In this document: in pieces, positions 43,883 through 47,737 of the stretch | How positions within the stretch are numbered: the first letter of the stretch is position 1 | Layout of the letters: each line of letters begins with the position of its first letter | Assembly: GCA_034520665.1 (NCBI GenBank) | Contig: JAXHNJ010000002.1 | Coordinates: 416,660 to 480,659, forward strand | Direction of reading: 5' to 3' | DNA length: 64,000 nt | Origin: Patescibacteria group bacterium | GTDB taxonomy: Bacteria > Patescibacteriota > Patescibacteriia > JAXHNJ01 | Notes under the pieces: generated by a model | Database searches by the model: none | What the model was told of the DNA's origin: nothing | The model's input: the letters and a program-made list of their open reading frames with translations, nothing else | Made by a program: the position numbers and the translations under genes

Positions 43883-46800
43883 TTAACTGCAATCACACCA
43901 TTTTCTAGCATTTTGGAACATCTGGAGCCAGGGAGATGCCTTAAGTTTATATCTCCAGTCTTTGGGCATCCAGGGCCATTGCCACTTAAGAAAAACGCGT
44001 TCTGGATGCGGCATCATGGCCAGGTGCCGACCGTCTGGTGAACAGAGAGCCGTGATTCCCTTGGGAGAGCCATTAGGATTTAAGGGATAACTTTCTGTCG
44101 CTCTTCCTGTTTCATCGGTATATACTAATGGTGTCAAGTTTTGGAAAACTATATCTTTTAGGATTTCTGAATCAGGACAATGAAGTTGTCCCTCACCATG
44201 AGCGACCCAAATTCCTAAAACAGAATTAGCCATGTCGCCCAACATAATGGAAGGACTTGGCATAATTTTAGTAGTTACCCAACGGGATTCAAAGAGCCCC
44301 GAAGTGTTTTGGATGAAACGAGGTTGTTTATCTTCATCAATGCCTTTCCAAGGTACCCAACCAAGTAGAGCCATCAACTGACAGCCATTACAGACACCAA
44401 GCGAGAAAGTGTCTTCACGCCGGTAAAAACGTTCAAACATTTTTCGCAGTTTGGGATTGAAAAGGATGATTCCGGCCCAACCCTTTGCGCTATCCAGTAC
44501 GTCAGCGTAGGAGAAGCCACCGACAAATACTATGCCACGACATGAATCAAGATCATATTCACCGTTCAGGAGATCAGTCATGGTCACATCAACCGGAGTG
44601 AATCCAGCTGCGAAAAATGCTGAAATCATTTCTCGATCACCATTACTACCTTCTTCGCGGATGATAGCCACTTTGGGCTTGCTAGTTCGGTTCAGAACCT
44701 CCGGAGGAGTTGCTTGCGGATTAAAGGATAGCGAGTAAACTGGACTAATACGCGTTCGGTGCCTTTTAGCCTGTTGCCAGGCCAGATCGGGATCAATTTG
44801 GTGGAGCTCTAGCTGATCACTAGTAGATTCCCACCATTCAAGCAGTTTGCTCGTTGATTCACCAAAGACTAACTCTTCTTGGTGATAAATGAAAACCATA
44901 TGTTCCTGGCAGGAATTTCCCAAAGTTAGACACGGTGAAACACCATACTCTTTAAGAATACTGGCAACTTCAAATTCGTTTTTAGGCAGAACCTCAAGTA
45001 CTAGACCCAGTTCTTCCGAGAACAGGTATTCAAGGGTAGTGACGTTGTCAGGCACCTTCACTTTTATCCCACAGTTGCCGGACATGGACATCTCCACCAG
45101 TGTGGTAATAAGCCCGCCATCACTGATGTCGTGGCCAGCCAAGACGAGATCGTGGTCGATCATTGCCTGAATAGCTAAAAAGACATTTTTCAGAAGTTCG
45201 GGATTATCGACATCCGGAGATTCGTTACCAATCTGCTTGTTGATCTGAGCTAGAGCCGAGCCACCCAGACGGTGCTTACCCGGCGCCATAGGAATATAAA
45301 GCAGAGAGCTATTCCCTGGTTGTTTGATATCCGGAGTTAAGATTTGAGTGATGTCAGGCATAGTAGCGTAGGCCGAAATAACCAACTGCCCTGGTGCTTT
45401 GACAGTTTCGTCGCCTACCTTAGCAGCCATGGACAAACTATCCTTACCGCCATCCACGGCGATACCTAATGCAATCATCAGATCTCGCATAGCTAGGGCA
45501 GCATCATGCAGTTTAGCCCCTTCACCGGGAAGCTTGGCCGCCCACATCCAGTTAGCTGAACACTTGATGTGTTTCAAGTCACTGATGCGAGCGAAGACCA
45601 TATTGGTCAAGGCTTCAGCTACGGCCATCCTAGCGCCAGCAGATGAATTGACTAACATCTTGATCGGTTGTTCACCGATAGATATGGCACTGCCTGTCAG
45701 TCCGAAATGACTCTGAGCCACTGCGGATACATCAGATACTGGTAGTTGCAGCGGACCACAGCATTGTTGTCTGGCGATTAAACCAGTGACACTTCGGTCT
45801 ACCTTTCGAACTAGATAACCTTTAGAGCATACTGATGGTAACCGGAAGACTTGACGTAAAGCCTCTTTAACGCTTATGTCAGGTAAATCTAGCGGAGCCA
45901 GTTCTTCTGGCACCTCATCAATCTTAAAACTCTTCTGCGGCATATCACAGAGAATCTTACCGAGATCAAGGTCTACAGGATAGGAGTCGTCCTGGTTATC
46001 ATAAACTACGATACGACCATTACCAGTGATATTTCCCAACACCTCACAGTTGATCTTTTCGCGTCTGCAGATGGCCTTAAATTTTTCTAATTGATTTGGA
46101 TAAATCAGGAAAGCGTCGCGCTCCTGGTATTCAGCGCCCCAAATCTCGAGAACAGACATAGTGGCATCTCCAACTTGGATTTGCCGTATGTCTATTCTAC
46201 CGCCAGCCGGTTCCACTAATTCCGTCAGAACATTACACGGTCCGCCAGCTCCTTGGTCATGGATGCTCAAAATAGGATTATTACTCCCCATCTCAATACA
46301 GGCACGAATGACACGATTAACTTTCTGTTCCATTTCAGCGTCTCCGCGTTGAACAGCATTGAAGTCCAGCTCAGCCGTGTTAGCCCCTTGAATCATACTG
46401 GAGGCAGAACCACCTCCCATACCAATGCGATAGGCAGGACCTCCAACCTGGATAATTACCATGCCGGGTTCAGGAGTTTTCTTTTTGGTGTGTTGATTAT
46501 CAATCTGACCGACACCACCAGTGAACATGATCGGCTTAATCCATTCGCGTCGCTCACCATTGGGAAGCCTCAGACCGAATGTTCGAACAAAACCCTGTAT
46601 AATAGGTTCGCCGAACTTGTTGCCGTAGTCGGAAGCACCATTGCTTTCCTCAATCATGATTTTGAGGGGAGTAGCCAGGTTGCCCGGATAAGCAAAATCT
46701 GGGTTTTCACCTTTAATGTGCAGAGCACTAGGCATACCGTTGTCAGCAATCAGGAGATTACCAGTGCAATAACCAGCTGTACCAGCAACCACCAGTCCGC

Positions 46801-47737
46801 CTTGGCCCACTCCTTGTCCGTCACGGATACGCCCACCAGTTCCGGTTTCAGCACCAGGAAAAGGAGCTACTCCGCTGGGGAAGTTGTGTGTTTCGGCATT
46901 GAAGGTGATATGATACTCACGTTGCTGGAGAGCAAAAGGTGAACAGATACCAGAATTTTTTGGGATCAAGGTTTGGATCTTGTATCCTGTGATAGCACTG
47001 GCATTATCACTGAAAGCAATCAGGCTGTTGGCCGAGTTGATCTGAAGCGGAGTCTGCACGATCTGGAGTAGCGTCTCGGGAAGTACCTGTCCGTTCCGGA
47101 CAAGTTTTCCCTTGAAGAACCAGTGACGGGAATGCTCACTGTTAGCTTGACCAAGCTGGAAACATTCCACATCTGTGGGATCGCGACCGATCTCGCTGAC
47201 GAAGAGGTTGTGATAGAAGTTGAGGTCCCAGTCGTCCATTCCTAAGCCCATTTTCTGGTTGATACGCCGAAGCGCTTTTACCCCCTCGTTCATTAGAGGA
47301 ATAATACGTACGGCTTTCGGTTGGATGCCGGTAGCGAAAGTTTTCAGGGGGCGAGGATAGTGACATTCAGTCATGCGATCATGATGATTAGCTAAAAAAG
47401 TATCTATATTATCTTCCTGTGGTAAGACATGTCGTCTGGAAATTTCCAAGCGAGTTATTTTATTTAGTCCACAAGCATGACAAATTGCTACGGCATTAGT
47501 TGAAAATGCAGTGGCGAAATTCATGCGTGGTCCAACTTCAATAACAGATTTTTTTTTGGACTGAAACAAGGAATCTTTACTAAAACAATTAGGATCAAAA
47601 GTTTCAGCCAGGAGCCAAGTTAATATATTTAACTCCTGAGTAGTTAATGGTTCGGATGTTTCTACATTAAAACAGTATTCAAATGTAGAACTAGCTTCAC
47701 GGTAAAAATGTAAAACTTTATTAGTATTCATCTCCAA
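43883..47737 (-). CDS. purL: Phosphoribosylformylglycinamidine (FGAM) synthase, long single-chain PurL form with fused N-terminal, synthetase and glutaminase domains.
   Basis: 1284 aa with [52 protein letters not shown], glutaminase [15 protein letters not shown] and a C-terminal MMPHPER motif. Markedly GC-richer than its flanks. The track start at 47737 is a TTG; the ATG at 47731, with AAGGAGG 8 nt upstream, is the more likely start. Confidence 0.9.
   Translation of the reverse strand: [1284 protein letters not shown]

Follow-up and report, generated by a model that had tools for sequence, protein, structure and literature searches.

The purL gene described here, which encodes a large single-chain formylglycinamidine ribonucleotide (FGAM) synthase, lies in a 64,000-nt stretch of contig JAXHNJ010000002.1 of a Patescibacteria group bacterium; this whole stretch is called the window below. 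As shown here, the gene was inserted horizontally at a point 2 nt past the queA stop codon, with duplication of the final 47 nt of this target. We consider it very likely that purL entered the lineage horizontally as a self-contained 4.1-kb cassette, the donor most likely being another Patescibacterium. The event is a cleanly resolved but routine intra-phylum horizontal transfer of an already annotated enzyme gene. The locus itself is unusually clean: occupied and empty sites are both available, the boundaries are exact, and the donor clade belongs to the same phylum. Most Patescibacteria are thought to be host-dependent for nucleotides, and the origin of purine genes in the minority that carries them bears on whether reduced genomes regain biosynthetic steps.

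Insertion of purL behind queA

A 47-nt direct repeat with a spacing of 4135 bp marks the two sides of the inserted unit (Table 1), of which purL is the only gene. When up to three mismatches were allowed, only these two copies were found in the 64 kb, and a match was obtained in 0 of 100 shuffles. Copy A is the functional end of queA. Translated, copy B would read KYRFYSFEDGMLID; it has Glu in place of Gly in the FGDGM motif and is regarded as a relic because this change alters a motif that is identical in the four QueA sequences compared.

The empty site was found in locus L083, a contig of the relative P0123, whose QueA is 79% identical to that of the host and whose RuvB falls into the same 90% cluster as the host RuvB. 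The gene order there is NIF3-like, small open reading frame (ORF), RuvB, four-helix-bundle protein, acyltransferase, QueA, S8 peptidase, SpoIID, polysaccharide synthesis genes and Wzy, which is the order of the window apart from purL and the acyltransferase before queA. L083 has no purL, and the gap between queA and the peptidase gene consists of ~525 bp of intergenic DNA and nothing else. When positions 43827-47961 were removed in silico, the window became collinear with L083 across the junction. A purL gene after queA was missing also in two more distant relatives (L084/L085 and L086). The occupied and empty sites form a textbook pair, and the flanks are native: the named best matches of QueA were all from Patescibacteria, and the right-hand neighbour of the insert is the neighbour of queA in L083 as well. 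As a second difference in gene content at the queA locus, the acyltransferase gene of L083 (Acyl_transf_1, 4483-5355), located between the four-helix-bundle gene and queA, is not present in the window (compare 42690-42754).

The native flank between copy B and the S8 peptidase gene contains a conserved non-coding element, in which a promoter-like TTGACA-17-TATTAT is followed by ~160 nt of structured sequence (minimum free energy (MFE) -60.2 kcal/mol, z = -6.05) and a terminator, GCCGGGAG...CTCCCGGC-U5. The element is kept in L083 with pair-preserving changes (GTCCC/GGGAC to GTCTC/GAGAT), and it stands directly 3' of queA there, whereas in the window purL stands between the two. It looks like a small RNA gene; no Rfam family was assigned to it at either gathering or relaxed thresholds.

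The inserted unit carries expression signals of its own. The initial annotation, which was made from the sequence alone, had described a host-like promoter and Shine-Dalgarno sequence for purL. The Shine-Dalgarno sequence AAGGAGG is real and lies 8 nt from the ATG at 47731. The promoter is less firm: a promoter-like site is present inside the unit, but it is a consensus match alone, and the count of promoter-like sites in the region was not above the shuffle expectation. At the other end, the U-run of the purL terminator ends exactly at the repeat boundary, at 43827.

The cassette and its repeat were also searched for elsewhere. The 36-nt core of the repeat had no match when metagenome contigs were scanned for other alleles or copies resembling a phage attachment site (attP), and the non-coding ends of the cassette had no similar DNA in any fetched locus. 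Around purL in L001, L002, L088, L089 and L090, no flanking repeats comparable to the 47-nt repeat of the window were found. In L001, from the genome that encodes the PurL relative P0003, a 67-nt direct repeat of 72% identity was observed (8739-8805 and 14542-14608), together with paired hairpin-like motifs; it brackets a 5.8-kb block of three genes, namely an M23 peptidase gene, purL and a 2',5' RNA ligase-like gene.

The purL gene and its product

The purL ORF is intact on the minus strand, being open back to a TTG at 47737 and ending at 43883. Its most likely start is the ATG at 47731, two codons inside the ORF, because AAGGAGG stands at the proper spacing of 8 nt upstream. The product is 100% identical to NCBI MDZ7798862.1, annotated as phosphoribosylformylglycinamidine synthase from a "Patescibacteria group bacterium" metagenome-assembled genome (MAG), on a contig of 698,002 bp. 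The fused architecture of roughly 1300 aa in the initial annotation was confirmed, with a length of 1282 aa rather than 1284 aa. TIGR01735 matched with 1569.7 bits (cut-off 1123.05), and residues 15-1280 covered positions 28-1306 of the 1307-position model. The Pfam domains follow the order PF18076, PF18072, PF02769 (twice), PF22689 and PF13507, and all five domains of the enzyme are present (FGAR-AT_N, linker, PurM_N-like, two AIRS_C and GATase_5).

Both active sites are kept. The glutaminase triad consists of C1114, H1242 and E1244, in columns that are invariant in the 51 sequences covering them; these residues are the counterparts of C1135, H1260 and E1262 in the E. coli/Salmonella PurL. 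When E. coli PurL (from NC_000913.3) was aligned with the protein, conservation was also seen at the synthetase-site residues H200, T281, H282, K637, D645, E706, N710, D868 and S870, whose columns are invariant wherever the aligned sequences cover them. In Salmonella numbering the synthetase site comprises H216, H296, K649, D657, E718, N722, D884 and S886.

By these features, purL is an intact, ordinary-looking gene for a large PurL. It shares with the known large single-chain FGAM synthases (TIGR01735; human PFAS, 9n9w; Salmonella PurL, 1t3t) the five-domain architecture, a full-length alignment, and the triad and synthetase residues. It differs in belonging to a Patescibacteria subclade of a eukaryote-like bacterial branch, outside the enterobacterial branch that has been studied biochemically; in the literature, we found no biochemistry for the eukaryote-like bacterial branch. 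The enzyme most likely converts formylglycinamide ribonucleotide (FGAR) to FGAM with glutamine and ATP within the de novo purine pathway of the host, as judged from its domains and residues. The absence of another purine-biosynthesis gene from the window, as stated by the initial annotation, was confirmed: none of the other 45 ORFs of at least 100 aa in the 64 kb matched purine-synthesis families.

Composition and codon usage

The mean GC content of the window is 35.1%. The GC content of purL is 46.2%, with 41-54% in 200-nt windows across the gene body, compared with a mean of 34.4% (standard deviation 4.0, range 22.6-41.3%) for the other 45 ORFs. The contrast of about 50% with 30-33% that had been proposed was correct in direction but not in its figures. 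At third codon positions the GC content (GC3) is 42.6% in purL vs 30.6 ± 5.1% in the other ORFs. When the PurL protein was recoded with the codon usage of the host, taken as that of the rest of the window, the gene had 42.5% GC and a GC3 of 35.1%; thus, approximately two-thirds of the 11.8-point GC excess is due to amino-acid composition.

The codon preferences were only partly as proposed. Of the three codons named (CTG, GGC and CGC), only CTG is enriched in purL (0.26 vs 0.10); the share of GGC is lower (0.23 vs 0.35) and that of CGC about the same (0.23 vs 0.20). The largest shifts are those of TTC (0.54 vs 0.12), ATC (0.45 vs 0.12) and TTA (0.18 vs 0.43), and CTC and AAG are shifted as well. 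Among the 46 ORFs, purL has the poorest fit to the synonymous codon usage of the host (-0.182 nat/codon), and its length-scaled fit is -6.4, compared with -2.2 for the next worst ORF. The view that the gene is compositionally foreign was upheld, and it is backed by evidence far stronger than base composition, namely the 47-nt flanking repeats and the empty site in a close relative.

AT-rich ends had also been noted. This is true of the 5' end (approximately the first 100 codons, GC3 0.23), but the 3' end of purL is not AT-rich. The same 5' region is not host-like in the relatives L001, L002, L088 and L089, unlike in the window. A chimeric gene, in which a host-like segment of 100 codons was joined to the rest, was considered and not supported: P0002 was the nearest relative in almost every 100-residue block, and for the first 110 residues the signal in this block comparison was too small to decide on chimerism.

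Relatives of the PurL protein

The product is nearer to eukaryotic FGAM synthase than to E. coli PurL, as the initial annotation had recognized from its motifs. In structure-sequence comparisons it scored 1335.6 bits with 9n9w, whose sequence we recognize as human PFAS, and 845 bits with the Salmonella PurL, and its identity is 52.3% to the human residues shown vs 37.0% to E. coli PurL. The cross-domain transfer that had been suggested on this basis was not borne out. A large protein database contains thousands of bacterial homologues at 59-77% identity, compared with 52% for the human protein. Among species-representative genomes, eukaryote-like large PurL was found in MAGs labelled Actinomycetota, Acidobacteriota, Nitrospirota, Gemmatimonadota, Latescibacterota, Gammaproteobacteria and others, and in the Patescibacteria lineages Moraniibacteriota and Paceibacter.

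A neighbour-joining tree of 52 sequences (1257 columns, 100 bootstraps, rooted on E. coli) agrees with this distribution. Human PFAS, the only eukaryote in the tree and a partial sequence, fell outside all 50 bacterial sequences with 73% support. The window PurL grouped with P0002 and P0003 (100%), then with P0004 and P0013 (100%), and this five-member group was joined by P0051, the fusion protein P0011 and Paceibacter (87%). P0003 is labelled Patescibacteria, P0002 has no organism label, and the L20 proteins encoded beside P0004 and P0013 cluster at 90% with Patescibacteria L20, so that an assignment to Patescibacteria, by label or L20 cluster, applies to three of these four relatives. The window PurL is a member of a bacterial, largely Patescibacteria, subclade. 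Its likeness to eukaryotic PFAS is a property of a large, old bacterial PurL clade; the resemblance marks this broad clade and is no evidence of cross-domain transfer. In addition, viral contigs were scanned for a phage reservoir of purL, and only giant-virus MAG sequences were found (37-46% identity).

GC signature and genomic contexts of the subclade

The GC difference between purL and its flanks is +11.8 points in the window vs +4.2 ± 2.9 across 78 other loci. Outlying differences were obtained for L001 (+12.5), L002 (+16.9), L088 (+11.7) and L089 (+12.6); P0107 (L103) and P0051 (L104) have a normal offset of ~+5 points. When GC3 was corrected for amino-acid composition through the flanking ORFs of each locus, the observed-minus-expected excess of purL was +0.073 in the window, +0.107 in L001, +0.210 in L002, +0.174 in L088, +0.172 in L089 and +0.077 in L090. 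Two other Patescibacteria purL genes gave +0.026 and +0.015, and 15 controls from outside the Patescibacteria ranged from -0.089 to +0.054. Translational selection for GC-rich codons was considered as a cause and rejected: the ribosomal-protein genes beside purL in L088 and L089 do not have such codons (GC3 0.32-0.36 vs 0.50-0.53 for purL), and therefore selection for expression does not explain the signature. The five subclade purL genes stand in four different genomic contexts, and repeated transfer among Patescibacteria from GC-richer members is the simplest reading.

In L002, a divergent PurM-like (AIRS_C-only) protein of ~410 aa is encoded directly upstream of purL (3990-5249), and its gene has the GC-rich composition in common with the adjoining purL, which suggests that the two form a two-gene island. 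In P0011 (1671 aa), PurL has a PurM-like domain (L090, 13781-15016) fused C-terminally, which is 64% identical to the L002 protein. The PurM-like family has 372 matches, of which the named ones are nearly all from Patescibacteria, and it is 21-26% identical to purM-like ORFs near purL elsewhere. Canonical purM, pyrF and pyrB genes are found near purL in L104, all with the same composition.

In L088 (9256-9879) and L089, purL is located just downstream of tRNA-Asp. Upstream of purL in L088, there are three copies of a unit of ~73 nt composed of the tRNA-Asp promoter and 5' part; this suggests that a tRNA-linked insertion spot has undergone rearrangements.

Route of insertion and alternative explanations

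In the course of events that we favour, a Patescibacteria (candidate phyla radiation, CPR) genome of ~35% GC would have received a functional-looking, single-chain, eukaryote-like purL from a Patescibacterium with a GC-richer member of the same purL subclade, and not from a eukaryote or a distant phylum. The cassette would have brought along a promoter region, a Shine-Dalgarno sequence and an intrinsic terminator of its own, and it would have landed 2 nt past the queA stop codon while duplicating the last 47 nt of its target. Two routes may be envisaged. Insertion could have occurred by site-specific recombination at an attachment-site (att)-like 3' end of queA with a recombinase acting in trans, or incoming DNA with a near-identical queA end could have been integrated, either through one Campbell-type crossover or through illegitimate recombination facilitated by homology. 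A type II/IV secretion-family ATPase (T2SSE) is encoded in the window and could belong to type IV pili or a DNA-uptake pilus. A transposon or insertion sequence was rejected as the vehicle, since no transposase was found and the 47-nt duplication is too long for a target-site duplication (2-15 bp); the sole inverted repeat near the ends of the unit has 14 nt with one mismatch, which is about chance level by a rough estimate rather than a computed one.

The insertion resembles genomic islands that tyrosine recombinases place into the 3' end of conserved genes or tRNA genes, where attL/attR direct repeats rebuild that end; it has in common with them target-derived direct repeats, an intact target, an empty site and a deviant composition. 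However, the unit is only 4.1 kb long, has a single cargo gene and no integrase or excisionase, and its target is not a tRNA; classic genomic islands encode a recombinase beside one att site. Homology-facilitated or Campbell-type insertion likewise leaves a short queA homology duplicated around foreign DNA and needs no mobile-element genes, but it requires a donor fragment that already bears a nearly identical queA end, and a donor arrangement with queA convergent with purL was absent from all databases searched. As in other cases of horizontal transfer shaping the metabolism of CPR/Patescibacteria, a metabolic gene is distributed patchily and in varied contexts among related small genomes; the difference is that nucleotide resolution was reached for the event in the window, for which an occupied as well as an empty site is available. 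In the distant Patescibacterium L090 (8893-15016), whose QueA is 53% identical, purL stands right after queA and is co-directional with it, with no duplicated queA end. This adjacency is either a coincidence or a hint of a favoured or recurrent site.

Several other explanations of the locus were weighed. It is unlikely, in our view, that purL is ancestral and vertically inherited, with its GC content set by a conserved protein rich in Gly, Ala and Pro together with codon selection, and that L083-type sites arose by loss through the 47-nt repeats. About two-thirds of the GC excess is indeed due to amino-acid composition, in 78 genomes purL is on average 4.2 points above its flanks, purL immediately follows queA in L090 too, and a deletion between the direct repeats would give exactly the empty site of L083. 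However, an event of insertion or duplication is needed to account for the repeats themselves, purL after queA is lacking in three independent relatives (L083, L084/L085 and L086), and L090 is distant in its QueA, has purL in the orientation opposite to that in the window and lacks the repeat. Moreover, the codon fit of purL is the worst in the window, no GC3 excess remains in the non-Patescibacteria controls after amino-acid correction, the ribosomal-protein genes beside purL in L088 and L089 lack GC-rich codons, and the five subclade members occupy four genomic contexts. An assembly artefact, in which a foreign purL fragment of the metagenome was mis-joined at a shared repeat, would fit a window that comes from a MAG and an insert bounded by repeats, at which assemblers can make false joins. 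Yet the two repeat copies differ at 2 positions and hence do not represent an identical k-mer path that was collapsed, the queA 3' end would have to be present on both sides of a foreign fragment, the non-coding ends of the cassette are AT-rich and host-like, the terminator U-run abuts the repeat exactly, and the contig is 698 kb long; such an artefact is very unlikely. Direct acquisition from a eukaryote could be argued from the match to human PFAS, which is far above that to enterobacterial PurL, but it becomes extremely unlikely when the many nearer bacterial sequences, the branching of human PFAS outside the whole bacterial clade, the Patescibacteria identity of the nearest relatives and the restriction of relatives in the viral collection to giant-virus MAG sequences are considered.

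Horizontal entry from another Patescibacterium also has several points against it. The closest donor candidate in the database is only 77% identical at the protein level. The codon-level GC3 excess in the window is modest (+0.073, z ~1.7 vs the other genes), the first ~100 codons (47431-47731) are host-like whereas the remainder is not, and composition by itself would not prove transfer. The high GC content of the subclade has been kept although the window protein and the four other members are only 68-77% identical, and simple slow amelioration does not explain this persistence. None of the 46 window ORFs of at least 100 aa matched recombinase, integrase or transposase families. When the PurM-like protein of L002 was used as a bait, none of the best 120 of its 372 matches lay on the host contig. 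Furthermore, when purine and pyrimidine synthesis are taken together, ~7% of Patescibacteria genomes were complete and 93% were without de novo nucleotide synthesis (bioRxiv 10.64898/2026.06.21.733656).

The last two points, and the lack of another pur gene in the 64 kb, also favour the view that purL was inserted but is an orphan, the rest of the pathway being absent and the protein having another activity or being a transient passenger. Herpesvirus FGARAT homologues, for which glutaminase or deamidase activity is reported, might serve as a model for such an alternative role. We hold an orphan gene to be improbable, considering that both active sites are fully conserved, that the ORF is intact over 1282 codons and that pathway genes are often scattered. 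In addition, one survey recorded an inosine monophosphate (IMP) module as complete in a third of the CPR MAGs (32% of 399 MAGs for de novo purine synthesis; PMC11608272), and relatives in the PurL clade adjoin purM, pyrF and pyrB (L104) or are fused to the PurM-like domain (L090).

A more far-reaching proposal, which we regard as rather unlikely, is that purL, sometimes with the PurM-like gene, is a small recombinase-less cassette that moves repeatedly between Patescibacteria, or is an orphan enzyme with a non-purine role. If this is true, a mobile cassette inserts by conserved genes, namely at the queA 3' end here and at tRNA-Asp in L088 and L089, and the GC-rich signature persists since the cassette never stays long in one host. 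Such a cassette would let reduced genomes regain or replace one step of de novo purine synthesis.

Other features of the window

The coordinates of the inserted unit, its native flanks and the replication genes are collected in Table 1.

Table 1 Features of the purL locus and of the replication-origin region (positions in the window).
Feature	Position	Strand	Description
dnaN	21544-22638	-	
dnaA	22915-24279	-	
rnpA	24633-24977	+	
yidC	25235-26023	+	
queA	42754..43824	+	Native gene; 3' end is the insertion site; NF001140, 425 bits
Direct repeat, copy A	43780..43826	+	Last 14 queA codons (KYRFYSFGDGMLID), stop codon and 2 nt; functional copy
Inserted unit	43827..47961 (equivalently 43780-47914)	.	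4135 bp: terminator, purL, promoter region and one repeat copy
purL intrinsic terminator (predicted)	43827..43861	-	8-bp G+C-rich stem and UUUUUU; MFE -14.7 kcal/mol, z = -4.75
purL coding sequence	43883..47731	-	1282 aa and stop codon; single-chain FGAM synthase
AT-rich upstream non-coding part of the unit	47738..47914	-	177 nt, 24-33% GC
Shine-Dalgarno sequence AAGGAGG	47740..47746	-	8 nt upstream of ATG 47731; read from the sequence
Promoter-like site TTGACA-18-AATATT	47781..47810	-	10/12 consensus matches, inside the inserted unit; consensus match only
Direct repeat, copy B	47915..47961	+	45/47 identical to copy A; GGG>GAG (Gly>Glu) in the FGDGM motif; non-coding relic
Conserved non-coding element	47962..48165	+	Native flank between copy B and the S8 peptidase gene
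S8/subtilisin-like peptidase gene	48235..50928	-	Native right-hand neighbour; also neighbour in the empty-site relative L083

The replication-origin region lies at 21544-26023, and the cumulative GC-skew minimum is found at ~25-26 kb of the window. A 192-aa ORF on the minus strand (35997-36575), which has no Pfam match and stands beside tRNA-Glu (35835-35911), ranks second from the bottom in its fit to host codon usage (-0.163 nat/codon; GC3 0.40); it may represent a further small insert of foreign origin. At 6578-16200, a glycogen/starch-type gene run comprises GH15, two starch-synthase-like GT5, two GH57, an APH-type kinase and a GalT-like transferase. Upstream of this run there is a PGI-like gene, and a ROK kinase gene is located further on, past a tyrosyl-tRNA synthetase gene on the opposite strand.

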